Source: a virus. Taken from it: 32,024 nucleotides of DNA. The stretch covers positions 1 through 32,024 of the IMG/VR virus record IMGVR_UViG_3300045988_164286; one strand, 5' to 3'. Of this stretch, positions 829 through 17,311 are shown in pieces. How positions within the stretch are numbered: position 1 is the stretch's first letter; each line of letters begins with the position of its first letter. The notes under the pieces were generated by a model that was not told the DNA's origin, searched no databases, and was given only the letters and a program-made list of their open reading frames with translations. Both the position numbers and the translations under genes were made by a program.

Positions 829-1689
829 CTAATCAGCAAGCGGAGTTGTACAGTAAGCGGTAACGCACCAGTCAAAGCCTTTCTGCGTCATCCTGGCATA
901 AGGCTCATTTGATTTGCCGTCTCGACGGGTGCTCATGATCTGTACGAACCTGCCTGTCTCAATTCCTCGCTTAGTAGGAGCGTTACTCCCCTGGCAAATC
1001 ATGCCATCAGCACGTAGAAGCGCAAAGAGACGTTTGCGGTTCATAAGCGGGTCGTACTGTGCGAGATAGCGTGCGGCATCTGTGATTGTCATCGTGCCTT
1101 TGACATTAATAACCGTGTCATAAACGCAAGCTTTTGGCGCAAGCTCATCAATTCTGACACCCTGCTCGATGATGGTTGTATCCTTCTCATAGAGCTGACG
1201 TTGTTGTTCTTTAAGCTGTGCGTCTTTGCGCTGAATGGCTTCATTAGCAACTAGGACCGCACGAGCTAAAAGCTCTTCATTACTCTCAGAGCCATCTGTG
1301 GCAATGTAACCGCCGCTTTGTCTAATTGCGGGAAGGACGTCATGTGTAACCCAGCGCTTAAAACGTTTGATGCGTTCAACTTTCGTCTCCCACGCAAGAA
1401 GCTGTTCGCGAGTGGCTTTGTTTGCTTTTGTCGGTTCAAACAAAAACAGCAAGTTATAAAACCCAGCCTCACTAATTAGCCTAACTTCCTGATTACCTCC
1501 AGGGGTGTACATATGCGTACCCCCCTTTTCATCTTCATCAAGACGCTGCATTGCACGGTTTCTATTTGTAATTTCCAAGAAATCGCATACGTCTTTAGCG
1601 ACAAACCAAGGCTCTCCATCAGATCCTTTAAGGGCTCTAAGTTCTCCAAATTCTTGAGAACTGAAAACTTGTATACTTGTATTGTCCAT
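829..1689 (-). CDS. Phage antirepressor (BRO-N domain plus KilAC/ANT-type C-terminal domain)
   Basis: N-terminus QVFSSQEFGELRAL..DGEPWFVAKDVCDFLEI.N.NRAMQRLDEDEKG is a classic BRO-N signature. 286 aa, AAGGAG RBS. Confidence 0.8.
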   Translation of the reverse strand: MDNTSIQVFSSQEFGELRALKGSDGEPWFVAKDVCDFLEITNRNRAMQRLDEDEKGGTHMYTPGGNQEVRLISEAGFYNLLFLFEPTKANKATREQLLAWETKVERIKRFKRWVTHDVLPAIRQSGGYIATDGSESNEELLARAVLVANEAIQRKDAQLKEQQRQLYEKDTTIIEQGVRIDELAPKACVYDTVINVKGTMTITDAARYLAQYDPLMNRKRLFALLRADGMICQGSNAPTKRGIETGRFVQIMSTRRDGKSNEPYARMTQKGFDWCVTAYCTTPLAD

Positions 1690-1910
1690 TTCAACTCCTT
1701 AAAGTTTTTGGACACGCTCTCCCACGTTGCCCCGTGAGGAGGGCACTTTTATCTTGTTAATAAATAAGGCCTGCAAAACAAAGAGCAAACACTGCAACAC
1801 ATAAACCAACGACGCTTGCCATCTTTGAGCAAGCAAAAATGCAGTAAACTGAAAATATAAGTGATAGAACAGACACCAAACACGAAAGCATACGGATTGG
1901 ATGTTTTCTA

Positions 1911-2294
1911 ATGGACAACTTAAGCTCCATACAAAAAGAAGCTATTAAAGTTGCTAAATCTTTAAGATTTCCCAAGGTTCACACACCCTTTGAAGATATT
2001 CCGAATATTGACGAGGTGTTAAAACAAAAACAGGACGACATGCAAGCCCTCGCTCAAGATCTATCTACATTTAGAGTTGCTGACACTGTTAAGCTAACCC
2101 CACTTGATGAGCAATTGAGAATTAACGAATTGCTGGATGTCTTAAAAGAACAAGCCCGTGTTTTAAATGCTCAAAATGAGGCATTTAAGGGATACGTAGA
2201 AGATGCAAGAAAAGAAACTTGGTTCTCACGACGTGTCTCAATCGCCTCTGTTGTTATTGCTCTAGTGTCTTTGCTTGTAGCGATTTTCAAGTAA
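1911..2294 (+). CDS. Coiled-coil protein with a C-terminal TM anchor (possible moron)
   Basis: 127-aa plus-strand ORF inside the minus-strand early operon. K/E/L/Q-rich body, terminal hydrophobic helix VSIASVVIALVSLLVAIF, AT-rich. The RBS is weak. Confidence 0.4.
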   Translation: MDNLSSIQKEAIKVAKSLRFPKVHTPFEDIPNIDEVLKQKQDDMQALAQDLSTFRVADTVKLTPLDEQLRINELLDVLKEQARVLNAQNEAFKGYVEDARKETWFSRRVSIASVVIALVSLLVAIFK

Positions 2295-2307
2295 GCGGCT
2301 GTTTTTT

Positions 2308-2562
2308 CTAATGGCATTTTGCCCATCTTTTAAAAGCTCCGCTTGCTTCTTGAGCTGTTTCAAAACTACCAAGAAACCACAGGTTCCCACCGTCTTCCAT
2401 AACGTAATATGCATCGTTAAAACAACTCTTTATAAGTGATGCTTTGTCAATGTGAGATATTGTGGTGTGTGGTGCTTTGGCTTTTTCTGGTTCGAGCTTA
2501 TTCTCGACTTTTGGCTCCCAATGATATGACCACGCTGAGCCAGTATTTTGCGGTATTGGCAT
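2308..2562 (-). CDS. Hypothetical early protein
   Basis: 84-aa ORF directly downstream of the Cro-like gene on the same strand. No motif recognised. Confidence 0.5.
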   Translation of the reverse strand: MPIPQNTGSAWSYHWEPKVENKLEPEKAKAPHTTISHIDKASLIKSCFNDAYYVMEDGGNLWFLGSFETAQEASGAFKRWAKCH

Positions 2563-2565
2563 TTA

Positions 2566-2781
2566 TTACTCCAGACATGCAAGCCACTTTGCAGAGACAT
2601 TTAGTGCATCAGCAAGTAGACGAATAGTTTTTAAGCTAGTTTTTTCGTCGTTTTCCTCTTTACTTGCTTTATAAATTGTCGACTCAGAGAGGTTGGTTCT
2701 TGTTGCGAGTTCACGAGCTGACACATTTTCTCTAGCCATTGCGATGCGAATACGAACAGCAATTGAATCCATCTGATCCAT
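2566..2781 (-). CDS. Cro-like XRE-family HTH regulator
   Basis: ATG at 2781 lies 5 nt after GGAGG (2787-2791). HTH ARELATRTNLSESTIYK. Divergent from the CI-like gene. The ORF-track start at 2793 is a TTG lying within/just upstream of the RBS (GGAGG 2787-2791). Confidence 0.75.
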   Translation of the reverse strand: MDQMDSIAVRIRIAMARENVSARELATRTNLSESTIYKASKEENDEKTSLKTIRLLADALNVSAKWLACLE

Positions 2782-2867
2782 GGTTGCCTCCAATCTATAA
2801 AACGTAGGGATAAAACAAATACTTGATTAATGCGATTTTCAAAGAACGACTAACTTTTATCTAGAAA

Positions 2868-2945
2868 CTTACGAAATCCGTAAGTTCTTCTTCATAATAG
2901 TTACGAAATTCGTAAATGTAAAGAAAATTTTTACGATATTTGTAT
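2868..2945. promoter_or_regulatory. Genetic-switch operator set: three related palindromes in the divergent promoter region
   Basis: O1 cTTACGAAATCCGTAAg at 2868-2884. O2 TTACGAAATTCGTAA at 2901-2915, a perfect palindrome. O3 TTACGATATTTGTAT at 2931-2945, degenerate. An extended -10 TGgTAAAAT at 2961-2969 serves the plus-strand gene. Confidence 0.65.
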
Positions 2946-2993
2946 ATTTTGTGTAGAAAGTGGTAAAATGCCTGCTAGATGAAAGGAGCACCA

Positions 2994-3293
2994 ATGGAAG
3001 AACTTAACCTTCAATTGAAGCAAATCCGTAAGATGCGCCGTATGTCCCAGGGAGACCTTGCTGAAGCTGTGGGAGTATCATCACGAGTAATTAGTGCTTG
3101 GGAACGTCAAGAAACTGAAATAACAATCAAACATGCAAAGAAAATATGTGAAGTTCTGGGCTGCACATTTGAAGAGCTAATCGGAGAAAAGCCATCACCA
3201 GAACAACTTGAAAACTCAAAGCAATTAGACGATCTATTTAACAAGCTTAAAGATGTGGATGCCGTAATCACTGAACTGCAGAAAAGAATTTAA
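2994..3293 (+). CDS. CI-like XRE-family repressor (HTH plus C-terminal helical tail)
   Basis: ATG at 2994 lies 5 nt after AGGAG (2984-2988). HTH MSQGDLAEAVGVSSRVISAWERQ. Divergent from the Cro-like gene. Confidence 0.75.
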   Translation: MEELNLQLKQIRKMRRMSQGDLAEAVGVSSRVISAWERQETEITIKHAKKICEVLGCTFEELIGEKPSPEQLENSKQLDDLFNKLKDVDAVITELQKRI

Positions 3294-3428
3294 GAAGATC
3301 TTGGCGGGCGTGAAGAAATAAGACATGTTTAATTCTCAAGGAACGCACGTTCCAATTTAGTGTTAACACCGGACAAAAACTTAGTCCGATATATAAAAGT
3401 TTGAAGGAATTGTGGAAGGGTTTGGGAA

Positions 3429-4346
3429 ATGGCTGTTTATGCTGAAAGGACTCTTGTTGTTTACAAATTTACGTTCAACAAGAGAAGGCACCCTGATGAA
3501 GTCTGTAGCATATACGATTTAGATGGGTCAGACATCCTTACGCACTTTTCAAAATTTCTCAATTCCAGAATCATTCCAAAATTAGAAAATGAAAACGTTA
3601 AAGTTTTTAAATTTCATAAGATTGAAATTGCTTCAGAAAAATATATTCTCGCGTCAATTGAATCTGGCCTCGCTGGCGAAGATCGTGTTATCTATGAGCC
3701 ATCTACTGATAAAAATGTAGGAAACATTAACGCCGAACAAGCGGCATTAGTCGGAACTCGCGTTTATCTATCTATTGAAAACACAGGTGATACATATGCA
3801 ATCCTTTGTGTTGAACATGCTTTATCATCTGCTGGAGACACCATTGTTCCACGAGAATTTGCAAACTACCTAAGACAAGCTGCTCCACATGTAACTATGA
3901 AATATGAAGCAGTTACAGAAAAAGAAGCGGAAGACACATTTAAATCTGTCGAGCAAATTTCTATCAAACACTACATCAAACAAAATGACATATCTGAAAG
4001 CCTAATTAAAGAAAGCGACTATGTCATGTTGACGTATGGACATAAAAAGAACAGACCATTTCCAACGAAGATAATCGACGCGATTAGATCTATTGACTCA
4101 AGAAGAAAAACATTGGTCGGATATGAGAAAAGTCTTTTTGACGACGAGGACGCTGTTGTTGAGGTCCAAATGAAAAATAACGTTGGACGAACAAAGAAGT
4201 TCAAGCTGAATGATGATTTTGATATGAGAATTGTAGAATTATTAAACTGCAATGGAGACAGACCTTTAAGCGATAAAGAATTTGTTAAAAGGTGCGCAGA
4301 AAAGGTGGAAGACATTTCAAATAGGTTAGGTCGCTCAATGTTGTAG
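3429..4346 (+). CDS. 305-aa soluble protein of unknown function; RexA-like by position and size only
   Basis: Clean ORF with a GGAAGGG RBS, downstream of the repressor on the same strand. AT-rich compared with the rest of the genome. No motif I can name. Confidence 0.7.
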   Translation: MAVYAERTLVVYKFTFNKRRHPDEVCSIYDLDGSDILTHFSKFLNSRIIPKLENENVKVFKFHKIEIASEKYILASIESGLAGEDRVIYEPSTDKNVGNINAEQAALVGTRVYLSIENTGDTYAILCVEHALSSAGDTIVPREFANYLRQAAPHVTMKYEAVTEKEAEDTFKSVEQISIKHYIKQNDISESLIKESDYVMLTYGHKKNRPFPTKIIDAIRSIDSRRKTLVGYEKSLFDDEDAVVEVQMKNNVGRTKKFKLNDDFDMRIVELLNCNGDRPLSDKEFVKRCAEKVEDISNRLGRSML

Positions 4347-4389
4347 AATAATAACAACAAAGAACGAATGTTCGACACAAGGAGGAGAA

Positions 4390-4920
4390 ATGAGCAAAAT
4401 TAGTTTATATTATGTGGTCAAAAACTATATTGCGTCGCTCCACCGAGGTCACGAAAAAAAGATATCTAAATCTGACGTTTTCCTTCAAATTATTACACCG
4501 CTTATCGTTGCTGTTGTAATCACCATCAATGCAAATAAGCTTCATGATTCTCTCAATGAATCTCTCCAGGGTCTCCTGACATGGGTATCAATTACCTCTT
4601 CATTAATTTTTGCCGTCGTTGTAATGGTTTACCAGCTCAGAATGCAATTAATCGCACAAAAGGAAATTAAACCTGAGGGAGATGAGCTAAGAGTAATCGA
4701 TGAGATTTTTTATTGTACTCTTTGGGCTGTCGTCGTGGGCTTCACTTCAGCGGCATTTATAGTTGTAAGACCTCTTGTATCAACATATAGCGCATTGATA
4801 GGGAATCTATTCGCGGGTTTAGCAATAGCCCTTTCATTAAATCTTGTTCTTGTAACTTGTATGACAATAAAACGAATTGGAATAACCTACGAAGTAATTT
4901 CAAAACGTTGGAACAAATAA
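4390..4920 (+). CDS. 176-aa integral membrane protein with four predicted TM helices; RexB-like by architecture
   Basis: Strong RBS AAGGAGG. Hydrophobic segments at about aa 30-48, 62-83, 105-126 and 136-160. A terminator follows immediately. Confidence 0.75.
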   Translation: MSKISLYYVVKNYIASLHRGHEKKISKSDVFLQIITPLIVAVVITINANKLHDSLNESLQGLLTWVSITSSLIFAVVVMVYQLRMQLIAQKEIKPEGDELRVIDEIFYCTLWAVVVGFTSAAFIVVRPLVSTYSALIGNLFAGLAIALSLNLVLVTCMTIKRIGITYEVISKRWNK

Positions 4921-4945
4921 GAGGAGCAATAAGCTCCTCTTTTTA
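4921..4945. terminator. Bidirectional intrinsic terminator between the convergent membrane-protein and integrase genes
   Basis: GAGGAGC-aataa-GCTCCTC followed by TTTTTAT. The reverse strand reads GAGGAGC-ttatt-GCTCCTC-ttatttg. Confidence 0.8.
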
Positions 4946-6064
4946 TATCGCGCGTCGCATCTGTAGAACTTCTGCGCCCTCTTTATTGACGTCGTTAAGA
5001 GCTTCTCCGATGATTTTCCCTGCCTTCTGAATCTGCTCTAGATCTGTATCTGCATAGCGCATCGTCATGTTAATATCGCTGTGGCCAAGAATGTCTTGTG
5101 CACTCTTGATATCCATGGTCCTGACTGCAATCGTTGCATAGGTGTGTCGCAGATCGTGAAAGACTGGTCGTCTCCCCTGCGTTCCAAGAAGCCCCCACTC
5201 TTCCGAGTGTCTCTTCCACCATGCCGTGACTCGCTCTGGCCTAAGGTATTCGCCTGAGAAGTCACCTAAAACGTACATCTCTTCATTAAACGCAATTCCC
5301 ATCAACATACAATCTTCAATGTATTTAGTGCGCCATTGCTTAAGAATGTCTACAAGTGGAGCTGGAACTGGGACCGTTCTGGTTTTCCCGTTCTTTAAGC
5401 CTTTCACATACGTCTTACCGCCGTCATAAGAAATGGCGCGACAGAGGTTCGCTGTGACGTCCTCCACCTTGAGCTTCACGTCCTTCCACTGAAGCCCGCA
5501 ACACTCCTCACGTCTCATGCCAGTAAAGTACGCTAAATACGTTGCAATAACCATTGGAGAAAGCTCGAGAGCAGCAAGCATAACTTGGAGCTTCCTACGT
5601 GAGGGTTCATCCAGAGGATTTGGCGGCGCAAGATGGCCCCTAGGGGCTTTAATTGACGCACAAGGGTCATACTGCAGATCTCTAATCGCTACAGCATGGC
5701 GTGTACATTGCCTCAAGCCATTGAAAGCCTTCTTGATGGTATTTGCTGAGTAGTTGGAGTCGTAAAGCCAGGACACATACATCTCAACATCTGTGATAGT
5801 AATGTCTTGTAAGCGTTTCTCGCCAAAGAAGAGATCTATGTAGCGAATACTATTCTTGTACGACGTATAAGTACGGCGCTCGATTTGCTGCGTGGCCACA
5901 AGGCTCTTAAAGTAATTGAGACAGTATGTGTACGCTGAGCAATCAAGTCTTGTTGCCTGGCTCTGTTCAACAATCTCAACAAACCCCGCATCCTTAACCC
6001 ATTTCTCAGCTTCAAGCATGGCGGTCTTTTTACCTCGACCAGTCTTATCAGATGGAGCACTCAA
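4943..6064 (-). CDS. int: Tyrosine recombinase / phage integrase (integrase 1)
   Basis: Catalytic signature TGMRREE ... HDLRHTYAT ... LGHSDINMTMRYAD. The start is uncertain: TTG at 6064 or ATG at 6019. Confidence 0.9.
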   Translation of the reverse strand: MSAPSDKTGRGKKTAMLEAEKWVKDAGFVEIVEQSQATRLDCSAYTYCLNYFKSLVATQQIERRTYTSYKNSIRYIDLFFGEKRLQDITITDVEMYVSWLYDSNYSANTIKKAFNGLRQCTRHAVAIRDLQYDPCASIKAPRGHLAPPNPLDEPSRRKLQVMLAALELSPMVIATYLAYFTGMRREECCGLQWKDVKLKVEDVTANLCRAISYDGGKTYVKGLKNGKTRTVPVPAPLVDILKQWRTKYIEDCMLMGIAFNEEMYVLGDFSGEYLRPERVTAWWKRHSEEWGLLGTQGRRPVFHDLRHTYATIAVRTMDIKSAQDILGHSDINMTMRYADTDLEQIQKAGKIIGEALNDVNKEGAEVLQMRRAI

Positions 6065-6138
6065 AGAATGATGCTTCTCATGGATAAGCCCATCTGCTCC
6101 ACGGTACCTTTGTTAAAATTTTTATCGGCTGCCTCCAT
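6061..6138 (-). CDS. Possible 25-aa leader ORF translationally coupled to integrase 1
   Basis: GGAGGcaaaATG gives MEAADKNFNKGTVEQMGLSMRSIIL*. Its TGA overlaps the integrase TTG start as TTGA. Confidence 0.25.
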   Translation of the reverse strand: MEAADKNFNKGTVEQMGLSMRSIIL

Positions 6139-6384
6139 TTTGCCTCCAAACTGTATGGCTACTGTAAAAATAGAATACCTGTTCGAATAAAAGTTTTAAC
6201 TATTTAGATAGGCGTTTACCTCGATATATTCAAATGAAGTGAATTGAGGAGCAATCGCTACTGTTAATCAGATTGAAACAATCCAGCAATTAAAGCGGTT
6301 AAATTCATCGTTACAAATGACCAGTTAAACGGCTTGTTGTAAGCCGTTTTAAGACGCGTAAAAATGAAAGTGGAGTATTTACCC

Positions 6385-6406
6385 ATAAAAAATACCCCTC
6401 CCGCCG
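6385..6406 (-). terminator. Distal half (3' arm plus U-tract) of the lysis-operon terminator split by the IS
   Basis: Read on the minus strand: GCGgGAGGGG followed by TATTTTTTAT. It pairs with 7864-7875 once the IS and one CCG copy are removed. Confidence 0.65.
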
Positions 6407-6451
6407 TGAACTGCCTCCCATTTCTTGGACATAAGAAATGGGAGGCTTTTT

Positions 6452-6949
6452 ATGCGTATGGATCGTAGAGTAAAGTACGATGTAGGGGTGAGGAGAAAGG
6501 TAGCAGAGCTCTTTGCTTCCGGTATGGGATCTTGTACGGTTGCAAGTACTCTTTCTGTTTCACTCTCAGCTGTAAAAACATGGCACTATATATACCACGC
6601 GTTTGGAAGCGAGGTGCTACTGACCATGGATGGCAAGCAAGCTCCCTATACCTACGAGCAAAAAGTTGCTGCAGCAAGAGCTGTCGTTGAGGGCGGCATG
6701 ACAAAGACTGAGGCAATGGCCAAGTTTAAGATTATGTCGCTGGCACCACTTAAGAGCTGGTGCAAGCTCTATCGTACAGGTGGCGCAGAGGCTCTTAAGC
6801 CAAAGCCAAAAGGAAGACCTAAAGGCTCTAAGTCCAAGCCACAGAAACGCACCCGCGAGCAGGAACTTGAGGAGAGGTGCCGCAGGCTCGAGACCGAGGT
6901 AGCCTACTTAAAAAAATTGCGCGCCCTGGTCGAGAAAGACGAGCTCTGA
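6452..6949 (+). CDS. IS3 OrfA (HTH/leucine-zipper transposase N-terminal protein)
   Basis: ATG at 6452 after GGGAGG. Basic HTH protein ending in a coiled coil (EVAYLKKLRALVEKDEL). Confidence 0.85.
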   Translation: MRMDRRVKYDVGVRRKVAELFASGMGSCTVASTLSVSLSAVKTWHYIYHAFGSEVLLTMDGKQAPYTYEQKVAAARAVVEGGMTKTEAMAKFKIMSLAPLKSWCKLYRTGGAEALKPKPKGRPKGSKSKPQKRTREQELEERCRRLETEVAYLKKLRALVEKDEL

Positions 6950-7821
6950 CCGGGGTAAAGGCTGAGGTTGTGAGTGCTTTACACAGTGAGGGGTACTCTT
7001 TGTGCTATTTGCTGGAGTGCTCAGGGCTTTCGAGGTCCACCTACTACTACGCACTGGCTCACCCAGTAAAGCCGACACGCCCAGAGCTACACCGCTCGGT
7101 TGCAGAGATTTTCTCGCGTACTACAAACGGCTGTGGCCACAGACAGATAGCCATGTGTCTGCGCGCTGAGTTGGGTGTAAGAATCGCCGACAAGACTGTT
7201 CTTAAAATCATGCGTGAGATGGGTATTCGCTGTAAGATACGACGTGAGACAGACTATCACCGCTATAGCTCCTATAAAGGCGTTGTCGGTAAGACCTTTG
7301 AAAACGTCATAGGACGCGACTTTTCTGCTGATGGACCATGGAAAAAGATGGGTACCGACGTCACAGAGTTTAAGCAGGCGTGGGGTAAGGCATACTTTGC
7401 TCCCGTCTATGACTTTGGAAGCAAAGAGATTGTCGCATGGAGTGTGTCGAGGGGTCCAAACATGGTTCAGCAAGTAGCTCTTCTCGATCAACTTTTAGCG
7501 AAGATACCTAAAGGCGTAACTCCGATTCTGCATAGCGATATGGGTTGGCAGTATCAGCACAGCGCATGGTGCAAGCGACTGAAAGACACTGGGATTGTCC
7601 AGAGCATGTCCAGAAAGGGTAACTGCATAGACAACGGTGCTACCGAGCAGGTCTTTGGTCATCTGAAAGACGAGTTCTTCCGAGGAAGAACGTGGCCTAA
7701 CTTTGAGTCTTTCAAAGCTGATTTGGACGCATATGTTATGTACTGGAACACACAAAGGCGTCAGGTTAAACTAAAAGGACTGACCCCGGAGGAGTTCCGG
7801 AATCAGTCCTTAGTGGCCTAG
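6877..7821 (+). CDS. IS3 OrfB (DDE/rve transposase catalytic domain), made as an OrfAB fusion by -1 frameshift
   Basis: Lies in the -1 frame relative to orfA. DDE context GTDVTEF ... HSDMGWQY ... NGATEQVFGHLKDE. Confidence 0.85.
   Translation: MPQARDRGSLLKKIARPGRERRALTGVKAEVVSALHSEGYSLCYLLECSGLSRSTYYYALAHPVKPTRPELHRSVAEIFSRTTNGCGHRQIAMCLRAELGVRIADKTVLKIMREMGIRCKIRRETDYHRYSSYKGVVGKTFENVIGRDFSADGPWKKMGTDVTEFKQAWGKAYFAPVYDFGSKEIVAWSVSRGPNMVQQVALLDQLLAKIPKGVTPILHSDMGWQYQHSAWCKRLKDTGIVQSMSRKGNCIDNGATEQVFGHLKDEFFRGRTWPNFESFKADLDAYVMYWNTQRRQVKLKGLTPEEFRNQSLVA
6910..6916 (+). promoter_or_regulatory. Programmed -1 ribosomal frameshift heptamer A_AAA_AAA of the IS3 transposase
   Basis: A7 run phased X_XXY_YYZ in the orfA frame (TTA AAA AAA TTG), within the orfA/orfB overlap. 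Confidence 0.75.
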
Positions 7822-7860
7822 CTCTTTATTAAATTCGTCCAAGTTTTGGGACGCAGTTCA

Positions 7861-7883
7861 CCGAAGCGAGAGGGGCTCTTGGT
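7861..7883 (-). terminator. Proximal half (5' arm) of the split lysis-operon terminator plus the right TSD copy
   Basis: Minus strand reads CCCCTCtCGCttcgg immediately after the endolysin stop (7884-7886). Confidence 0.65.
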
Positions 7884-8948
7884 TTAGTGCAGTGAAGTCA
7901 GTCGACCAGCTTCATCTGTGTCCACTTGCACGGTACTGTCAGCCTGGACAGAGCCGTCAGCGTTGACTGCGTACGCATGATCATTGTAGACGTGAACGCC
8001 CGCGGGAAGCAGATTACCATTCTCTGAAGCGAGGTACTTCTTGCCTTCAGCGTCAAAGATACCTGTTGCCATGCGTCCATCGTTTGCAAAGTAGTAGTCG
8101 CAACTTCCAATATGCTGCATACCTGTCAGCATGGCGCACTCTTGAGGTCCTTCATCCGGGCAAAGATAGAACCAATCTGTGCCATCAAAGTACCAGCCTG
8201 TGACTGCATATCCTCGTGCGTCAAAGTAGTACCAAGAACTATTGATGAACGCCCACTGGCTATAGTAGTAAGCACTTGGGCTGGTTGCATACCACCAGCC
8301 AGTCGCATTCTTAACCCAGTGTGGCTCGAACTTGGACTCACCCTGTGCAAGCTGCTCCCATTCTGCGTAAGTCAGCTTTGCGACATCAAGGTCAACGGTA
8401 CCGCCTGCGCTGGAATACTGCCACAGAGTCCAATCGCCCCATGCGCCAGTATTATAGATCATAGCGGGCAAATCCCACGAGAAGCGATTGTCTGGGTACC
8501 CAGCAATCCACAGACGCGATACATCGGCACAAGACGCTACCTGCGAGCGTCCAGCTGGGTACGTGTAGACAACAGGATAGATGCCAGTCTTAGCATATAC
8601 GCGGTCAACAAACTGCCTAGCCCAAACTGTTGAGCCCCATGCGTCATTGTCACCATTCTCCCAGTCAAGGCATAAGAGAGCCTTGCCAATATAGCTGGAG
8701 ACACAAGCCACAAATGCGTCAGCTTCTGCCACAGGTGAGCCACCTTCTGCGTAGTGGTAGACACCAATGAGCTTACCGTCTGCAAGTGCACGCTGAAGTT
8801 GTGCGGTCATGTAGCGGTTCATTGGCTGGGTGCCTTGGGTAGCCTTAGCAATCACAAAATCAGAGCCACTGTATGCAGTCTCGACATTTGGGTGCGAGTA
8901 TGTCGCACCCAATGCCTGATAACCGCTTACATCAATGCCCCTAAGCAT
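7884..8948 (-). CDS. Endolysin: GH25 muramidase with C-terminal aromatic cell-wall-binding (choline-binding-type) repeats
   Basis: N-terminus MLRGIDVSGYQ...DFVIAKATQG is typical of GH25. The C-terminus carries repeated GW.Y / W.YF...G...TGW aromatic motifs. Confidence 0.9.
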   Translation of the reverse strand: MLRGIDVSGYQALGATYSHPNVETAYSGSDFVIAKATQGTQPMNRYMTAQLQRALADGKLIGVYHYAEGGSPVAEADAFVACVSSYIGKALLCLDWENGDNDAWGSTVWARQFVDRVYAKTGIYPVVYTYPAGRSQVASCADVSRLWIAGYPDNRFSWDLPAMIYNTGAWGDWTLWQYSSAGGTVDLDVAKLTYAEWEQLAQGESKFEPHWVKNATGWWYATSPSAYYYSQWAFINSSWYYFDARGYAVTGWYFDGTDWFYLCPDEGPQECAMLTGMQHIGSCDYYFANDGRMATGIFDAEGKKYLASENGNLLPAGVHVYNDHAYAVNADGSVQADSTVQVDTDEAGRLTSLH

Positions 8949-9303
8949 TGTTTACCTCTTCTTTTGGCTCTTCTGCTGGCTTTGTATTGATTGGTTCAGC
9001 GTTGCCCGTCATGTAACTTGCAGGACGCTCAGAAGGCTGTACATAGGTCATTGCACGTGCAGAATCGCTTAGTCCCTTAGTCGTTGGGTCAACCGTGACA
9101 CCGATAGCACCAAGGACAGCTACAACCACGGTACCAATGAGATAAGGGTTGCTGATAAACTTAACAAATACATCAGCTAAGCTGCCCCAAGTGGTCAAAT
9201 CGGAGTAAGCCAGTCCAAGATATGCCAGGATTGGACTCATGACAATTCCAACCATTCCAAGCCACCATGCGGGGTTGTGTAGACGTACTTTCCAGTTAAT
9301 CAT
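8941..9303 (-). CDS. Holin (LL-H / phiLC3 family)
   Basis: MINWKVRLHNPAWWLGMVGIV... start typical of the family, two to three TM segments, overlaps the endolysin start by 8 nt. Confidence 0.8.
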   Translation of the reverse strand: MINWKVRLHNPAWWLGMVGIVMSPILAYLGLAYSDLTTWGSLADVFVKFISNPYLIGTVVVAVLGAIGVTVDPTTKGLSDSARAMTYVQPSERPASYMTGNAEPINTKPAEEPKEEVNNA

Positions 9304-9324
9304 TTCTTTCTCCTTAAATCAGAA

Positions 9325-9654
9325 TTAGTGTGTATGCGCCTGTTCCAGGCGTTCCAGCCGTCCCGCCTGATTGCGGGTCACATCCTCGACCACAGCAAGA
9401 CGGGTATCGTGTACAGAGAGTACATCGCGGATATTCGTAATAGTCTCGTCCGTGCGTGCCATGTACGCAGTGAAGGCTTTCTGTGTGTCATCCAAGTCAC
9501 TCTTGAGCTGCTTCACGCCTTCTTCAATGCGCACGAGTCGCATGGCGTCTTCCTGGCTTGCACGGTTCATAGCCTTAGCGCCATTTATGAGCGTTAGCAC
9601 CATGCCAAGGAATGACACCGCAGCGACAATCTGCTCGAATGTTAGTGGATTCAT
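9325..9654 (-). CDS. N-terminally membrane-anchored coiled-coil protein of the lysis cassette (XhlA-like role possible)
   Basis: ATG at 9654 after GAGGTGAGG. TM segment IVAAVSFLGMVLTLI followed by a heptad-rich tail. The longer track ORF (start 9765) overlaps the Tal gene. Confidence 0.55.
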   Translation of the reverse strand: MNPLTFEQIVAAVSFLGMVLTLINGAKAMNRASQEDAMRLVRIEEGVKQLKSDLDDTQKAFTAYMARTDETITNIRDVLSVHDTRLAVVEDVTRNQAGRLERLEQAHTH

Positions 9655-9664
9655 AACCTCACCT

Positions 9665-11884
9665 CTATTCCATACTCTTAGGAAGAATTGGAATAATTCC
9701 AGTCGCATAACCGCTAGACCAGTTGTAGAAGTAAATATGACCGTCATTGCCGTTCGCTGAGCCAATCCAAATCTTGGCGGTATTGTTTCCCGTCTGTGTG
9801 CCTAGAGAGTGATAGCCCTCAATGGCTGGTAATAGTTCTTTAGGCATTTGCGCTGTAGTGGTACGAGTTGAATAACCAGCTGCTAGATAACAATCGAGAT
9901 ACAACATGCCACCACGAATACAATATCGGACGCGACAAACGCCATCATCTTGCAGAGTAGTCCAAGACGTGAACTTGATAAGCTTGGCTAAATCTTCAAA
10001 CGCTATAACTTCTTCACGTCCGTGGGTTCTGTCACGAGCAATAAACCCCAACGAACCCAAACCAATGCCCTTAGCTGTATTTCCATTTTGGCCATCTGAT
10101 ACATCAAGCCTAATCGTAGGAGCATTAACAAAGAAAGCGCCACCTAAATTAAATAGTAAGTGTCTAGCAAACACTGCGGTCACTTTAGTATCGTCTTTAC
10201 CATAGTTGTAACCGTCTACGATATTGAACACACCGCCACCAAGCGATACTGCACTCTGTTCAAACTTCGCAAGCTCCTCTGAGCCTTTCAACAGCTTCAT
10301 TCCGTGGCTGTCGATGGTTGTGTGAACGCCATCTTTGTCGCCAACATGCGCACCGCTCTCATCGTGAGAAAAAGCGTTTGCCATATCATCAACCGTTGCC
10401 TTCACCTCTTCTGCCTTGTTGCTTGCTTCTGTTGCCATGGTCTTTGCCTCCTTTGCTGCTGTTGTTGCGTTCTTTGCGTCTGTGGCTACGTTGCTCACTT
10501 CCTCTGCCGCACGCTCAGCCTTAGCCGCGACAGTCTCAACTTTCTGCGCCGCCGCCGTTGCTGTGGTTGCTACGTCAGCAATCTTCTCTGTGGCTGCATC
10601 GGCTTTCTTCTCAACCGCTACCGCTTTTTCCTCAACGGCTGCAACTTTGATAGTTGTTGTTGCTGCGTCTTTAGCAATATTCCTTGTTGCGTTAGAGAGA
10701 GAAGTAACACGCTTTGCAATGCTTTCCTGCGCAGACTCTTGTGAGCTCGTGGCTCCCTTTGTCAGCGTTGCAGTAATTGCGCCAAGCTTGTACTGAGTTG
10801 CGGTTGGGTTAGTGAGGTTAATGGTGCGACCTGAACAAATCATGTAACGCTCAATGCCATGCGGCTCACTCTTAACGAATACACGATCTAAAAAGTCGAC
10901 AGGCAACGTCTGCTCATTGAGATTGTGCAAGTCGAAGGCTGACACCTCGATTGAGTCATCAAGCTTACCCGCCGCAAGGTCAGCAACAGCCTTGTCAGCA
11001 AGTGCCTGTGGCTTATCCAAGTCGTAGGACATCGTCTTCTCAATGAGTCCATACTTCTCAACCGCTGCCATATCAACAACTACATCGCCCTGGATAGCAA
11101 AGCCAAAGGGAACATAAGCAGTCTCAGCTGACACGTTGACTTTATGCTCATCACTGCCTTTGCCTGTCTTGCCAACGGGAACGATGGCGGTGTAGATATC
11201 CTTGCCGTCTACCTGTGTGTCGAGGTCTAAGAGATTGCTGCCAAGCTCTACTCTCTGAGTTGCTTCTGCTGCGCCCGTGTCCGGTAGCCAGTCGATAATA
11301 GATCCTGTTGCGTCATACCTCACGCGCAGCCAGCCACCGCACGCTTTTTCAAGCTTGTCACGCATCTCTTTGAGCGTTGCAGGGCGTGTGCCTGTACCGC
11401 GTTGCAGCTTGCCATAATTCGCGCCAGCATTCACGCCGATTCTGAACTTCTCGCACGCATTCATAACGTGTGCGTTGTGCTGCTCGATGAACCACTCAAA
11501 TAACTTGTTGGCTTCAGCGGGAGCGTTGATGTCGCACTCAATCTCATCCGTGTCATAAGTCTTGTAAGGTCTCACGGTAGTGTCATTGAGGTACGCCATA
11601 GCACCCTCGCAGGTCAGCTTCTTACTACCGTCAAACTCCATTGAGATTGCTCTGACACGGCCACGGAACAGAACAATGCCAGTCTCATACTCGACCAACT
11701 CAACCTCTCTGTTTGGAAGCATCACCGTGTCACGGGTGAAGCTGTCCCAGAGCGGATGCGTTGGCTGGATAGTAAGAGAAAGAGCCGGGGATTGTCCCGA
11801 CTCTTCCTTTAAGCTGCCAACTGAGATTTGAACGTCTGTACGTGGGTCATGAAGCACACTACCTGCATACTTCAAGATGTACAT
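9665..11884 (-). CDS. Tail-associated protein (Tal-type N-terminus) with Ala-rich coiled coil and C-terminal receptor-binding-like domain
   Basis: 739 aa at the position after Dit. The N-terminus resembles prophage tail endopeptidase/Tal proteins. The central A/E/K/T-rich coiled coil spans about aa 390-500. Confidence 0.7.
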   Translation of the reverse strand: MYILKYAGSVLHDPRTDVQISVGSLKEESGQSPALSLTIQPTHPLWDSFTRDTVMLPNREVELVEYETGIVLFRGRVRAISMEFDGSKKLTCEGAMAYLNDTTVRPYKTYDTDEIECDINAPAEANKLFEWFIEQHNAHVMNACEKFRIGVNAGANYGKLQRGTGTRPATLKEMRDKLEKACGGWLRVRYDATGSIIDWLPDTGAAEATQRVELGSNLLDLDTQVDGKDIYTAIVPVGKTGKGSDEHKVNVSAETAYVPFGFAIQGDVVVDMAAVEKYGLIEKTMSYDLDKPQALADKAVADLAAGKLDDSIEVSAFDLHNLNEQTLPVDFLDRVFVKSEPHGIERYMICSGRTINLTNPTATQYKLGAITATLTKGATSSQESAQESIAKRVTSLSNATRNIAKDAATTTIKVAAVEEKAVAVEKKADAATEKIADVATTATAAAQKVETVAAKAERAAEEVSNVATDAKNATTAAKEAKTMATEASNKAEEVKATVDDMANAFSHDESGAHVGDKDGVHTTIDSHGMKLLKGSEELAKFEQSAVSLGGGVFNIVDGYNYGKDDTKVTAVFARHLLFNLGGAFFVNAPTIRLDVSDGQNGNTAKGIGLGSLGFIARDRTHGREEVIAFEDLAKLIKFTSWTTLQDDGVCRVRYCIRGGMLYLDCYLAAGYSTRTTTAQMPKELLPAIEGYHSLGTQTGNNTAKIWIGSANGNDGHIYFYNWSSGYATGIIPILPKSME

Positions 11885-12346
11885 TTAAGCCACCCTCTCC
11901 CACATATAGACAGCGCGATATGGTGGCATGTTGTTATGTGGCTGGCCACCGCCGACCGCATCAACCTGGAAGCGGTAATTGGTGTAAGTGTCCGCCGAAC
12001 GTGCAGTCCACTGATTGCCGCCACCATTGTCTGTACCGTAGTGCATGGAGGTGTCGTGGCTGTGGCTTGGCATCTCGTTGATGGTCAGCGTGTGAGTATC
12101 CTCGCCGCCCGTTGAGCCAGCGGGGAACTTCTGCGACTGAGCCAGGAGGAACACGCCGTTCAAAGCCTGCCATGTGCCACCCAAAAACGTTGCGGGGTCT
12201 GTTGGCTTGGTTAGTTGAATAATAATTCCCACTGGATACATAGCATCCAGCAGGTCGAAGTTCTTGGCCAAGTCCTTAATAGTCTGAGTGACATCATCTG
12301 TCACATCTGGCTTTGTAAGTCCAAGCCTTGCTGTTTTAGTGCTCAT
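11885..12346 (-). CDS. Phage tail collar-domain protein
   Basis: GGEDTHTLTINEMPSHSH ... GGGQPHNNMPPYRAVYMWERV matches the tail-collar (MdpB-like) signature. Confidence 0.75.
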   Translation of the reverse strand: MSTKTARLGLTKPDVTDDVTQTIKDLAKNFDLLDAMYPVGIIIQLTKPTDPATFLGGTWQALNGVFLLAQSQKFPAGSTGGEDTHTLTINEMPSHSHDTSMHYGTDNGGGNQWTARSADTYTNYRFQVDAVGGGQPHNNMPPYRAVYMWERVA

Positions 12347-13201
12347 TTAGATATCCTTCCACTCGAACTTGAGTGATACGTCATTGCCTGGATGGTTCTC
12401 GTTGTCGCCAACATACATGTTGTTTTGCCATGCGCCACGGACGCTCTCCCACGTCTTGCCTGTGTAAGCCTGCCATTTAAGGCTCTTGAGCCTGTTCTGA
12501 CCTGCTCTTGCAAGGTAGCTGAGTGTGAGCCCGTCAAAGCGATTCCACTTATCACCTGTATAGTCACGCCATAAGGCTGTACCGTAGTCAGGTGTGGTGT
12601 TCACTGTGATTGTGTTCTTGCCGTTGTGAAGACGTGCTGCATCGCTCGACCATACGCCGGGGCTTAAGAAGAAGCTCGTACCGTTGATGTTTACGATTGC
12701 GCTTGCTTGCGTGGTAATAACCGCTAGAGCGTCATGTGCAGGACCGTCAACAACGTAAGACTTGCCAAGCTCGCCGTTGAGCAAATACTCGACAATGCCC
12801 TTGCTCTTGTAAGGCTCGCAAACAACCTTTACTTTGAGCGCAACGCCTTGCATAAACATCTTCTGAGTGTCAACTTCAAAGCGCCCGTGATATGTATAAC
12901 CTTCATCCCAGGACAGCTTGAAGTCGTACGCTCTGCCATGCAAGAAATTACGCAGCTTAGTAAGAGACTGCTCAATCTCAACCCAGTCAAGAGCTGTGTT
13001 TGGATAGCAGGTAAACTCGATTGTGCGCTTACCGAATAGCGGACGGTGAGCAAACCACTCAGAGAGATCTAGAACACCATCAGCACCAGGAATAGTGACT
13101 TGCATTGTCTTTGGCTCTGGCGGTGTGTCGACATAGTCTGTAATAACCACGCCAAACGTCTCGCAAAGCGGTGTGTCACCTACATATATCTCGAGGTTCA
13201 T
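12347..13201 (-). CDS. Distal tail protein (Dit)
   Basis: 284 aa immediately after the tape measure gene, with an ATGA overlap at 13198-13201. Confidence 0.65.
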   Translation of the reverse strand: MNLEIYVGDTPLCETFGVVITDYVDTPPEPKTMQVTIPGADGVLDLSEWFAHRPLFGKRTIEFTCYPNTALDWVEIEQSLTKLRNFLHGRAYDFKLSWDEGYTYHGRFEVDTQKMFMQGVALKVKVVCEPYKSKGIVEYLLNGELGKSYVVDGPAHDALAVITTQASAIVNINGTSFFLSPGVWSSDAARLHNGKNTITVNTTPDYGTALWRDYTGDKWNRFDGLTLSYLARAGQNRLKSLKWQAYTGKTWESVRGAWQNNMYVGDNENHPGNDVSLKFEWKDI

Positions 13202-14874
13202 CGACTAGCCACCACCTTATAAGCGCCAAGATTGGCATCAACGTAAGGCGATACAACGCCACCAACAAGCTTTGCGTCCATGTAGAGCTTCATGTTCTTA
13301 AGGTCCTCGCGCATGTTCCTAATCTCAGCAACGACAGCGCTTTCGTGGTTAGACTCATTCATTGCGTCAACCATGTAACCTTTGATGTTGTCGATTGGAA
13401 GAATCGCTTCTGGACCTGCTTCACCGCCAACCATTGGACGTAAGCCGTTCATACCAAACATCGTTGGCTTGGTAAGAATGCCGCCCTCTGCGTACCATTC
13501 AATACTGAAATGCGGAACAGAAGGTGGAACAATCGAAAAACCGCCGGAGATGTGGAGATAAGGAAGCTTGATGTGTGGTAACTGGATAACAAGACCAGCA
13601 AAGAAGCTCTTAATCTTACCAGGAATGCTAGAAATAAAGCTAACCATGTTATTGAAGTTGCTCTTAATGCCGTCACCAATCGAATAGCAGAAGTTCTTCC
13701 ATGCAAGGAATGCAGCTGTTCCAAGTGATAACGCAGCTGCAATACCGCTCATGCCATTGTGTACAACTGTTGCTAGTCCCTCGATAACGGGTCTAAGACC
13801 GCCACAAATCTCACGGACAGTAACGCCAAAGCTAGCTGCGTCACTACCAGCATTGGACATATCGTCACCCATGTCCTTAAAGAGCGGGGTAACAGACTGA
13901 ATGCAAGCTGTGAGGTCTTTTGAAATCTGGTCGATGAGCGGTTGCAAGGCATAAAAGACACCGTTGACAGTATCAATCAAGAAGCTAAGAACGCCATTTA
14001 AGCCTTCCATCGCGCCACGAACAAGCGGGAGCACGCTAACACCAAGCTCCATGAGCGGTTCAATAAATGGAGTAAGCACATTCAAAATGTTCGAAAGTAA
14101 GTCCATAAAGAACTCAAGAACCAGTGACACCTGCTCCATATTGGCCTTAAAGATACTGTTGACTTCATCCAGGGCATTTGTGTTCTCAATGATGTTGTTA
14201 AATGAATCGCCAATGCCTTTTGCAAAGTCCTCAATGGAGCTGATAAGTCCCTCAAGAGAATCAGCAACACCATAGACATCAAATCCCGTTGTATCGATGA
14301 AGTCACCGATTGCAACTTGGTTGTCAGACAAGAAAGACTCAATAGATCCTGTCAACTTCTCTGCAACACTTGCTCCGAGGTCTTTAAGGTCTGTTGCCTT
14401 CGCTGCGCTCGTAAACGATGAGAACATACCAGACGCGATTGACTTAAAGTCCAAGCTCTCAACAACAGCAGCAAGCATGTTGCCAAGTTCCTCACCAATG
14501 CCCTTTGCAACATCCGGCAGCGCCTTAAAAAGTCCCTTGGTAATTCTGACGATTGTTGGAATGAGGTTCTTTGCAACCGTTCCAATAGACTTCAGAAGCT
14601 TCTCAGACATGCCCTCAATATCGCCGTTTGGGTCAGCTATGGCCGTGAGCCAGTTCTCCCAGGAAGCCTGCATCATCTGAATAGAGCCTTGGATAGTCTC
14701 CGCTGCTTCTTCAGCAGAGTTACCCATAATACCTTGCTGCTCCTGGATGTCGTGAATTGCCTGGACGATGTCGCCATACTTCTCGATGGTTAAGTCACCA
14801 GCGCGTCCTTGTGCCTTCTCAAAAGCGTTAGCGTCTGCAATAAGACGCTCCATCTCTTGCTTTGTGCCACCATA
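13198..14874 (-). CDS. Tape measure protein, exon 2 (558 aa)
   Basis: Begins YGGTKQEMERLIADA..., which continues the motif ending exon 1. Long helical, Gly/Ala/Ser-rich protein. In frame with the track ORF 13198..14907. Confidence 0.8.
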   Translation of the reverse strand, partial: YGGTKQEMERLIADANAFEKAQGRAGDLTIEKYGDIVQAIHDIQEQQGIMGNSAEEAAETIQGSIQMMQASWENWLTAIADPNGDIEGMSEKLLKSIGTVAKNLIPTIVRITKGLFKALPDVAKGIGEELGNMLAAVVESLDFKSIASGMFSSFTSAAKATDLKDLGASVAEKLTGSIESFLSDNQVAIGDFIDTTGFDVYGVADSLEGLISSIEDFAKGIGDSFNNIIENTNALDEVNSIFKANMEQVSLVLEFFMDLLSNILNVLTPFIEPLMELGVSVLPLVRGAMEGLNGVLSFLIDTVNGVFYALQPLIDQISKDLTACIQSVTPLFKDMGDDMSNAGSDAASFGVTVREICGGLRPVIEGLATVVHNGMSGIAAALSLGTAAFLAWKNFCYSIGDGIKSNFNNMVSFISSIPGKIKSFFAGLVIQLPHIKLPYLHISGGFSIVPPSVPHFSIEWYAEGGILTKPTMFGMNGLRPMVGGEAGPEAILPIDNIKGYMVDAMNESNHESAVVAEIRNMREDLKNMKLYMDAKLVGGVVSPYVDANLGAYKVVASR

Positions 14875-15162
14875 CATTTGTATTCGCTGCAACTCGCTAG
14901 GCTGCAACCGCCATAAAGGCTGCTCTATGTCACCATAGAGATTAGACTATCTCTTGAAACCCTTACCGGGTTCCCCTCGCACTTCCAGCCGCTTGGCTGT
15001 ACTCTACTCGCTTCCGTGTTAAACACGTGCTTTCGATAGTCGTTACACTTTCCCTGAATAAAGTCAGGGCTTAGCACGGTATTGTCTTTCTGCCTAAGCG
15101 GCCAAAAGAGTTCCACCGTTTTCACGAGGTTTATGCTCAGCAATTAGTGGTCTTTTGAGTTT
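14875..15162 (-). ncRNA. Candidate ORF-less group I intron (288 nt) interrupting the tape measure gene
   Basis: The 5' exon ends in U and the insert ends in G. P1: exon GCUCGGU pairs with intron GCUGAGC (plus coordinates 15135-15141), with a U-G wobble at the splice site. P10: exon-2 AUGGUGG pairs with intron CCACU(A)AU. Several compact hairpins are present, including a GUGA-capped 7-bp stem. Confidence 0.65.
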
Positions 15163-15672
15163 ACCGAGCTTAAGATTATCGAGCATGGTAAAGTTCTGCT
15201 TAGCGAAGCCTTGATATGCGTTCTGAATGTCTTGGAGATTAGAGCCAAAGATTGACGCATTGTCAGCCATGTCGGTAATTGCCATATTGCCCGCATGGGC
15301 AGCTGCAACCACATCGCCGCCAAAAGACTGCTTAAGCGCTGCGCCCATGCTATTGAGCTGATCCATATACTGGTTCATCGAGACACCGGCAACGGCATAG
15401 GCAGCTTGAGCATTAGCCATGACCTGACTGGACGCTTCGCCAAAAATCTTCTCTACGCCGCCAGAAAGCTGCTCAAAGTTTGCATATGCGTCAAGGGATT
15501 GTTTACCGATGGCAATCATTGTTGCACCGATTGCAGCGACTGCCGCTGTAACTCCCAAGGCAGCTGTCTTCATACCGTCAAATGCTGCTGTTGCTACGCC
15601 TTCATTGAAACCTTTAGTCGATGGAATGACAGATACATAAGCAGAACCCACTTCTGCGTTAGCCATATTCAC
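15163..15672 (-). CDS. Tape measure protein, exon 1 (170 aa)
   Basis: Ends ...AYQGFAKQNFTMLDNLKLG. The unspliced reading frame runs 22 more codons into the insert to a TAG at 15094. Confidence 0.8.
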
Positions 15673-15680
15673 CTCCTAAT

Positions 15681-16093
15681 TTAATGTGAGTCCCACCAGT
15701 CATTAAATTGACTAATTGGGATTGGGTCCTTGCCGTAGACCTCCTCTTTGGCACTCTCAACGCCAGGGCGTGTGAGTGGCTTAGGCTTAGGCTGCTTTTT
15801 TGTTGTATTAGCAGAGGAATACATCCACGTCAGCTGGCTTATCTGGTCTGAGAGTCTTGCAAGAAGTTGTGGAACAATCTCTTGTGACTCCCAGAGAGCA
15901 TAGTCAATGTCATTAGGATGTGTTGCCTTCCAAAGTGCAGAAGTCTTAGGCAAGTTTTGGATAAAAGAAAAGAGCGCCCTATAACTAAGGCGCTCTCCAA
16001 GGTCATCTAATGTGAAGCTTGTGAGGGTCATAAGGTCATATTCAAGCTCTCCAGTATGCTTAAGAATCACCTGCGAGAGCCAAACTATTCCCC
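15681..16093 (-). CDS. Tail assembly chaperone, frameshift-extension part (GT-type product)
   Basis: Lies in the -1 frame relative to 16085..16360. That frame opens only at the last three codons of the upstream gene. Typical G/GT arrangement upstream of the tape measure gene. Confidence 0.55.
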
Positions 16094-16941: not shown

Positions 16942-16943
16942 AG

Positions 16944-17309: not shown

Positions 17310-17311
17310 AA

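Follow-up and report, generated by a model that had tools for sequence, protein, structure and literature searches.

In phage lambda, the repressor gene cI is followed by rexA, which codes for a soluble protein, and by rexB, which codes for a membrane protein with four transmembrane segments, and these genes are co-transcribed in the lysogen. The actinobacteriophages Butters and Toast carry pairs of genes, gp30/gp31 and gp42/gp41 respectively, that are called "Rex-like" (PMC7542560, PMC11077077). The present work concerns the cassette found at positions 3294-4945 of the IMG/VR record IMGVR_UViG_3300045988_164286 (hereafter the window, which is the whole stretch of 32,024 nt, positions 1-32,024), whose source is a prophage of the oral bacterium Lancefieldella. 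The two genes of this cassette, which we call A and B, probably form a two-component phage-exclusion module of the prophage, and would be a very divergent branch, in the Coriobacteriia, of the Butters/Toast family.

The Butters pair is the sole member of this family that has been tested genetically. Infection by PurpleHaze and Alma is abolished by gp30 without its partner, gp31 on its own is inactive, and co-expression of the two attenuates the block imposed by gp30; gp30 and gp31 co-precipitate at the membrane (PMC7542560). Regarding Toast, a Gordonia phage, gp42 is a dimer that binds double-stranded DNA non-specifically (PMC11077077), and we found in the literature no genetic demonstration of defence by gp42/gp41. 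CarolAnn gp44/gp43 and Sbash gp30/gp31, two-gene defences of actinobacteriophages as well, consist of a cytoplasmic protein of about 370 amino acids (aa) and a four-transmembrane protein; they are expressed in the lysogen, both genes are required, and it is proposed that they depolarise the membrane (PMC6426606, PMC6426596).

The cassette of the window has the order of cI-rexA-rexB, with a repressor, a soluble protein of about 300 aa (280–300 aa if lambda is included) and a four-transmembrane protein, the pair being co-oriented with the prophage repressor:

2994..3293 (alternative start 2979), plus strand: repressor, first gene of the plus-strand unit (Pfam HTH_3, E = 3e-16; PHROG transcriptional repressor)
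3429..4346, plus strand: gene A, 305 aa, soluble, directly downstream of the repressor
4379..4385, plus strand: ribosome-binding site (RBS) of gene B, AAGGAGG, read off the sequence
4390..4920, plus strand: gene B, 176 aa, four-transmembrane membrane protein
4919..4941, both strands: bidirectional intrinsic terminator with a stem of nine pairs, five of them G-C, and a T run on either strand

Probable relationship to the Butters and Toast pairs

Because the host is an actinobacterium, we compared the profiles of A and B with those of the actinobacteriophage "Rex-like" pairs. The alignment of the gene A family (A2) contains 59 sequences; A3 and A5 are alignments of gene B. According to hhalign, A2 and Butters gp30 (KC576783) are co-linear across 186 columns (E = 5.7e-4), in which R111 and E129 match, and A2 against Toast gp42 gives 84% (E = 7e-6) with A105, R111, A124 and E129 matched. 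Butters gp31 and A3 align end-to-end, with five invariant residues matched, and the comparison of A3 with Toast gp41 alone gives 50%. Toast gp42/gp41 are true homologues of Butters gp30/gp31 (tblastn, 2e-22 and 5e-13). Against the profile that combines Butters and Toast, A2 gives 76% (E = 2e-5) over 194 co-linear columns, and A3 against the gp31+gp41 profile gives 91.5% (E = 8.6e-7) over 169 columns, end-to-end. In the controls, made with reversed and five column-shuffled profiles, hhalign gives at most 1.3%, with E >= 0.04, and at most 0.4% in the case of A.

Searches with hidden Markov models (HMM) agree with these alignments. Targeted scores are 21.5 bits for A and 22.7 bits for B, vs about 0 for lambda RexA and 2.6 for RexB. 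In a reciprocal test on 492 sequences, which included decoy open reading frames (ORFs), the Butters/Toast HMM ranks 22 members of the A family before the first decoy, and the gp31/gp41 HMM ranks only members of the B family, the bridging member P0125 reaching 25 bits. Homology of the soluble component, homology of the membrane component and synteny are all found, which at the level of sequence points to membership of the Butters/Toast family.

We consider that A and B are, with good confidence, remote homologues of the Butters and Toast proteins. Remote homology is the best reading of the data because two proteins point to it independently, and because gene order and genomic niches are shared as well. 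The idea that the 305-aa protein may represent a new family, put forward in the original prediction (which was made from the letters of the window), was thus too strong, since both proteins have distant relatives in this pair. Pfam contains no family for the Butters and Toast proteins.

The organization of Butters (and of the near-identical phage Rubeelu) is like that of the window: the soluble gene is followed directly by the four-transmembrane gene, and the two are prophage cargo. The most conserved motif is the same in the two families, that of Butters and that of the window, namely R-x2-[LF]...G...A...E on a beta-hairpin. The Butters pair is placed after the lysis cassette, as in the relatives L042-L044 of the window pair, and the layout of Toast (and of phage PCoral7) is that of the window, with a repressor (gp43), gp42, gp41, further genes and an integrase. 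There are also differences. Butters gp30 is longer than A (403 vs 305 aa), with a long insertion after the strand that carries the conserved Glu, and Toast gp41 has a long extracytoplasmic insertion between its third and fourth transmembrane segments. The Butters genes overlap and lack the palindrome GAAC-N4-GTTC, whereas the spacer of the window, 43 bp long, contains such a site (see below); the Toast spacer is 24 nt long and has no palindrome. Last, the host of Butters is a Mycobacterium, whereas that of the window belongs to the Coriobacteriia.

As for the proteins, A has no hydrophobic segment (maximum KD19 0.95). In the 59-sequence alignment E129 is invariant, while G80, G83, R111, A124, L272 and C289 are nearly invariant. 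The AlphaFold2 model obtained with this alignment (predicted local distance difference test, pLDDT, 86.9; predicted template-modelling score, pTM, 0.78) predicts a beta-rich fold with two lobes and a long C-terminal helix at the end. B has four hydrophobic segments, at about 29-47, 62-82, 105-127 and 136-160 (Kyte-Doolittle). Its topology is predicted to be N-in/C-in, since the positive charges sit at the N-terminus, in the central loop and at the C-terminus, and its invariant polar residues (Q82, R84, D104, R162 and Y167) are on the predicted cytoplasmic face; the AlphaFold2 model (pLDDT 80) consists of four long helices and a short N-terminal helix. The ratio of nonsynonymous to synonymous substitution rates (dN/dS) was estimated at about 0.09 in A and 0.16-0.29 in B. 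Genes A and B are real coding genes under purifying selection.

The curated libraries gave little. Gene A has no match in Pfam, PADLOC, PHROGs, NCBIfam or the PDB sequences, and its profile has none in the PDB; the 59 members of its family match nothing in Pfam (E <= 0.1) or PADLOC, and ten of the gene B partners match nothing meaningful in the curated libraries. The matches of gene B itself are all sub-threshold: DUF6773 (1e-3), phrog_38328 (1.6e-4), and in PADLOC "4TM effector" (0.12) and PycTM (0.57). Among annotated phages, neither megablast of the region nor tblastn of gene A returned a match. When the model of A was compared to the PDB with Foldseek, nothing was found at E <= 1e-3; in BFVD it matches four uncharacterised phage proteins (best E = 8e-16, template-modelling score 0.75). 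A START/SRPBCC-like fold was considered for A and rejected, the matches being weak and partial (template-modelling score <= 0.45 on the target, E >= 5e-3). With the model of B, Foldseek returned generic helical bundles only, none of them in the PDB at E <= 1e-3.

The negative results of the libraries are meaningful, because lambda RexA and RexB (both from NC_001416), used as controls in the same Pfam and PADLOC libraries, score strongly (1e-97 and 9e-110 for RexA, 8.5e-92 and 8.6e-61 for RexB). Neither the A of the window nor the 59 family members match the RexA models (Pfam PF15969, PADLOC), and gene B does not match the RexB models (Pfam PF15968, PADLOC). By hhalign, A2 vs RexA gives 0.3% and A3 vs RexB 1.3%; RexA and RexB are at background against both the window family and the Butters/Toast family. 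The structure of RexA is deposited as 8TWQ (PMC11077077), and neither this structure nor that of RdgC (2OWL) is among the 50 PDB Foldseek matches listed for A. Homology with RexA/RexB was rejected on the basis of the HMM and hhalign results: no sequence or profile similarity of the lambda proteins to A and B was found. Of the view that this is a RexAB-like cassette, the architecture and the position in the lysogeny module hold, but not the membership of the RexA and RexB families. As a matter of fact, "Rex-like" refers to architecture, not to demonstrated homology, in the Butters/Toast family too.

It may nevertheless be that the pair works as a lambda-Rex-type abortive-infection switch, in which A, a sensor activated by infection, would open B, a four-transmembrane channel, so that the membrane potential collapses. 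The layout of the cassette is that of cI-rexA-rexB; Sbash gp30/31 and CarolAnn gp44/43, for which both genes are needed, are proposed to work in the same way (PMC6426596, PMC6426606); the RexB of a RexAB-type system of P. putida damages membranes (PMC12894663); and invariant residues of B are located in the central cytoplasmic loop, where mutations of Sbash gp31 abolish defence (PMC6426596). On the contrary, the HMM and hhalign results just described speak against a Rex-type switch, as does the absence of any PDB Foldseek match at E <= 1e-3 although the RexA structure is available, and in the nearest tested homologue gp30 defends alone while gp31 alone is inactive (PMC7542560). We see this switch as the main alternative, tentative and somewhat unlikely. 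The logic of a sensor coupled to a membrane-depolarising effector, which had been proposed for the cassette, cannot be assumed, since in the only family member tested genetically it is the soluble protein that blocks infection by itself, and gp31 attenuates the block.

The CarolAnn/Sbash pairs make up a sequence family of their own, distinguished from A-B by Pfam results and by published descriptions: they have a weak DUF4747 match, and no DUF4747-like region was detected by Pfam (E <= 0.1) in the A of the window or in the 59 family members.

A resemblance to Kiwa had also been suggested, since Kiwa associates a small multi-transmembrane protein with a soluble partner of about 300 aa. In Kiwa the transmembrane gene comes first, which is the reverse of the order A-B. 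Neither A nor B matches KwaA/KwaB (DUF4868) in PADLOC or Pfam, there is no Kiwa entry among the Foldseek matches listed, and neither model has a PDB match at E <= 1e-3, so that the suggested likeness is not borne out. More generally, that A-B is a Kiwa-like or other catalogued membrane-associated defence (KwaA/KwaB, or the transmembrane effectors of CBASS or Pycsar) is extremely unlikely: the pairing of a four-transmembrane protein with a partner of about 300 aa would fit, and the very weak "4TM effector" and PycTM matches of B, its only ones in PADLOC, go in the same direction, but A, the 59 members and B have no meaningful match in PADLOC, and no DUF4868 or other Pfam domain.

Distribution of the pair, exonuclease gene and palindromes

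A word-indexed search with A returned only 15 clusters, 14 of which have at least 87% identity and one 47%; an exhaustive HMMER search, in which the profile was run against 1.84 billion representatives, returned 86 proteins at E <= 1e-3, 54 of them at E <= 1e-10. A search for loci with the broad alignment A2 gave nothing, as no stretch is conserved enough. Nearly all members of the family are about 300 aa long and match over their full length. The close relatives are hosted by Lancefieldella parvula and by metagenome-assembled genomes of Atopobium, a more distant branch is found in Adlercreutzia, and the samples include human oral metagenomes.

In more than 40 loci, a homologue of B directly follows every homologue of A, except in L013 and L026, where no B was detected. 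The identities of A and B fall together from one lineage to the next (47/44, 37/38, 35/33 and 26/30%). On the other hand, the neighbouring repressors vary (helix-turn-helix types of 97, 99 and 104 aa, S24 types of 210-218 aa), and altogether the pair accompanies at least five unrelated types of repressor and three types of integrase, tyrosine or serine. It occupies two cargo positions, either between the repressor and the integrase or directly after the holin and endolysin genes, and one distant member adjoins AbiEii and an ImmA/IrrE-type regulator. A-B is a portable two-gene cargo module, kept by selection and inherited as a unit. The original prediction had asked whether the pair is conserved as a unit, and it is: the genes stay adjacent wherever the contig covers both positions, and they co-diverge down to about 25-30% identity.

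In an Adlercreutzia prophage (L037, positions 4893-6991), the S24 repressor is separated from A-B by three genes without annotation (253, 173 and 173 aa); these may be additional cargo or defence genes of the same operon.

Two features were absent from the original prediction: the form of the locus that, in relatives, contains an exonuclease gene, and palindromes of the type GAAC-N4-GTTC. The corresponding features of the window are the following:

3326..3385, plus strand: conserved leader element that heads the cassette (blastn to L003 6782-6841)
3341..3352, no strand assigned: palindrome 1, GAACGCACGTTC, GAAC-N4-GTTC, LexA/Cheo-box core, at the head of the cassette
3386..3406, no strand assigned: junction where the exonuclease gene is absent, about 1.1 kb of the relatives (L003 6842-7978) missing (blastn vs L003 and L006)
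4362..4373, no strand assigned: palindrome 2, GAACGAATGTTC, lying between genes A and B, 6 nt ahead of the gene B RBS

About half of the close relatives, along with the 47% lineage, have a gene for a DEDDh-BRCT exonuclease of 342-393 aa between the repressor and A (L003 6880-7908, L001 6817-7998, L015 4851-5879). The product scores 4e-29 to 9e-33 with Pfam RNase_T, 1e-4 to 2e-7 with BRCT (C-terminal) and about 1e-37 with PADLOC DEDDh, and it also matches the exonuclease part of the PADLOC candidate PDC-S48 (about 1e-31). In the close clade it is seen only alongside the 97-aa type of repressor. The more distant lineages, Butters and Toast have two genes only, and we know of no exonuclease variant of the Butters system. 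Since identical A proteins (P0001) are found both with and without the exonuclease, and since the distant lineages have two genes, it follows that the core is A-B, with the exonuclease as an optional accessory.

In the loci that have three genes, a leader element of about 45 bp is duplicated, with one copy on either side of the exonuclease gene; in L003 and L018 the copy upstream of the exonuclease gene is intact and that upstream of gene A is degenerate. This duplication offers a simple recombination route to the loss of the exonuclease. In blastn alignments, window 3326-3385 corresponds to L003 6782-6841, and the window from 3407 onward to L003 from 7979 onward. From these sequences, the window has probably lost the exonuclease gene by recombination between the duplicated leader copies.

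One could then imagine that A-B is the decaying remnant of a three-gene system, non-functional since the exonuclease was lost: the gene is cleanly absent from the window, and in the 47% lineage the exonuclease has diverged in step with A and B (identities: exonuclease 48%, A 47%, B 44%). Against decay, the P0001 proteins are identical whether or not the exonuclease is present, the two-gene form is the rule in the distant lineages, in Butters and in Toast, and the dN/dS values in comparisons with relatives that lack the exonuclease are 0.09 for A and 0.17-0.18 for B. We find this explanation very unlikely.

The two perfect GAAC-N4-GTTC sites of the 32-kb window (vs 0.43 expected) are both located in spacers of the cassette, while sites with one mismatch occur at the rate expected by chance. 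Palindrome 1 is perfect in relatives that carry the exonuclease (L003 6797-6808) and in some two-gene relatives (L008); it has one mismatch in other two-gene relatives, such as L007. The position of palindrome 2 is kept in L001/L026, L029 and L037, in which the identity is 47%, 35% and 31% for A and 30-35% for B (the site is found at L001 8918-8929, L029 5924-5935, L037 7972-7983 and L003 8961-8972). The site is conserved in four lineages; its half-sites do not change, but its central bases (GAAT, GTAG, ATAG, ATAC, ATAA) and its flanks do, and this pattern indicates a binding site for a dimeric protein.

GAACn4GTTC is the core sequence within the Cheo box, the LexA-binding site of Gram-positive bacteria (PMC2248561). 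The sites of the window match this core and are in a regulatory position; as LexA boxes they are known here by their motif. The most likely candidate for the putative binder is host LexA, protein A being the alternative. Other explanations of the palindromes were rejected. They are not cI/cro operators, the probable sequence of which is TTACGAAAT(C/T)CGTAA, and they persist across unrelated types of repressor; they are not RNA hairpins either, as conservation is limited to a 4-bp stem and Rfam gave no match. The ratio of the two components matters in Rex and in Butters, which makes control of this ratio a plausible function for the candidate operator between A and B.

The same palindrome would also fit an accessory function in lysogeny or induction, in which A-B modulate the switch of their own prophage or prevent self-exclusion, with the LexA-like site allowing the SOS response to increase B. 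The cassette belongs to the immunity operon, the SOS-box-like palindrome is directly before B, and in lambda RexA biases the switch towards lysis while RexB is proposed to act against self-exclusion (PMC11077077, PMC7542560). But the pair is also found after the lysis cassette, far from the switch, and its association with at least five types of repressor and three of integrase is a better fit to portable cargo, so that we consider this accessory function quite unlikely.

How the pair may act

That A-B is probably a phage-exclusion module, rather than something of a wholly new kind, follows from its probable distant kinship with the tested Butters system. By analogy, the biochemistry of Toast gp42 is the best available clue to the role of A, which would be a dimeric, non-specific DNA binder held at the membrane by the conserved residues on the cytoplasmic face of B. 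Upon infection by a heterotypic phage, A would act as a sensor/effector and the infection would be stopped. As in the Butters model, B would set the amount of free A, being both a tether and a modulator; it is less likely that A opens B as a membrane-damaging effector, as in the model for Rex, Sbash and CarolAnn. The palindrome before the RBS of B would serve as an operator by which the level of B is adjusted to that of A, host LexA being the likeliest binder, and the DEDDh-BRCT exonuclease of the relatives would be an optional third gene.

A more elaborate mechanism, gated by the SOS response, may also be conceived, although we regard it as speculative and unlikely. The ancestral unit of the clade would be a DNA-centred exclusion system of three parts, comprising the DEDDh-BRCT 3'-5' exonuclease, the DNA-binding protein A and the membrane tether B, with a stoichiometry set by host LexA acting at the conserved SOS box between A and B. 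The resting lysogen would keep B low relative to A, or A tethered; cleavage of LexA, induced by a phage or by damage, would shift the A:B ratio, and this shift would arm the system, or disarm it during induction of the prophage itself so as to avoid self-exclusion. Where present, the exonuclease would destroy the DNA marked by A. If true, this would be a mechanism that is not described for Rex, Butters, Sbash or CarolAnn.

Several points weigh against our proposal that A-B is an exclusion module of the Butters/Toast family with a LexA-tuned membrane component. The homology is seen at the profile-profile level only, with 10-15% identity; no HMMER match would survive a database-wide search, and the profiles used for comparison are shallow (11 and 2 sequences). 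The function of A-B is carried over by analogy from the relatives, and may have drifted, the Coriobacteriia being a different class from the Mycobacterium and Gordonia hosts. Regarding LexA, the putative assignment is made from the identity of the motif, GAAC-N4-GTTC is absent from several branches of the family as well as from Butters and Toast, and there is no LexA box at the antirepressor promoter in the window.

If the proposal is correct, the range of an experimentally supported but uncurated family of actinobacteriophage defence systems is widened, from phages of soil Mycobacterium and Gordonia to prophages of Coriobacteriia from the human mouth and gut (Lancefieldella/Atopobium, Adlercreutzia), hosts for which, to our knowledge, almost no phage-defence biology has been described. 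The pair is overlooked by Pfam, PADLOC 2.0, PHROGs and NCBIfam. Relative to Butters and Toast, the optional DEDDh-BRCT exonuclease and the putative SOS-box-like operators are new traits. The 59-sequence alignment, with its invariant Glu and near-invariant Arg, is a resource for mutagenesis, and so are the natural two- and three-gene variants that differ only by the exonuclease; the LexA-box-like candidate operator before the membrane gene gives a handle on the component ratio and on self-exclusion in Rex-like systems.

Rest of the prophage

The coordinates given in the original prediction for the repressor, the 305-aa gene and the 176-aa gene are correct, and so are the strong AAGGAGG RBS, the 43-bp gap between A and B and the bidirectional terminator, a hairpin at 4919-4941 that is followed by a T run and that ends both the cassette and the convergent integrase gene. 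Upstream of the repressor ATG at 2994 there is an AAAGGAG RBS, and no convincing terminator was found between the repressor and gene A. A scan for sigma-70 promoters was uninformative (7 matches vs 8.1 expected). According to the ORF map of the window, the long lytic and structural ORFs are all on the minus strand, as had been claimed; apart from the repressor, A and B, the plus strand carries only ORF 1911-2294 and the ORFs of an insertion sequence.

The GC content of 3294-4945 is 36.9% (25-45% in 60-nt lines, mean 37%). The window as a whole has 46.3%, positions 8000-19000 have 49.5% and positions 18316-19197 have 52%. The contrast with the structural genes is therefore real, but smaller than had been thought, the earlier figure of 28-33% being too low. 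The use of this AT-richness as a sign that the cassette was acquired separately was rejected: the whole early/immunity stretch 1500-5000 has 36-40% GC, so that the cassette does not stand out by its AT-richness, which says little in favour of a separate origin.

Two palindromic repeats of 15 nt in the divergent repressor/cro (cI/cro) region, 2857-2958, probably represent the immunity operators:

2869-2883, no strand assigned: putative immunity operator, TTACGAAAT(C/T)CGTAA
2901-2915, no strand assigned: putative immunity operator, second copy of this repeat

A third copy, degenerate, is found near 2930-2944. The window is of a different immunity type from L003, since 2563-3325 has no DNA match to it. 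The early operon encodes a Bro-N/KilAC antirepressor (829-1689, minus strand). Since this antirepressor is present and no S24 self-cleavage domain was found in the repressor (2994-3293), it may be that induction is driven by the antirepressor.

The integrase (4943-6140, minus strand) is 95% identical to the 404-aa integrases of the relatives from their residue 32 onward. Its longest ORF starts at a TTG (6064), the upstream ATG (6138) is out of frame, and about 290 bp of L003 past the integrase start are missing from the window; the integrase of the window could be frameshifted or truncated, or there could be an error of assembly. Between the integrase and the endolysin gene, near the expected attP, lies an IS3-like element (6406-7861). 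Its terminal inverted repeats are 25 nt long (6406-6430 and 7837-7861), and it contains two ORFs that overlap (6425-6949 and 6877-7821).

Last, ORF 1911-2294 (plus strand) codes for a protein of 127 aa that matches no family, with a coiled-coil-like middle and a hydrophobic C-terminal tail, predicted to be a tail anchor. It is part of an insertion of about 358 bp that L008 shares and L003 lacks, and is another small plus-strand cargo gene, located between the antirepressor and the cro-side genes.

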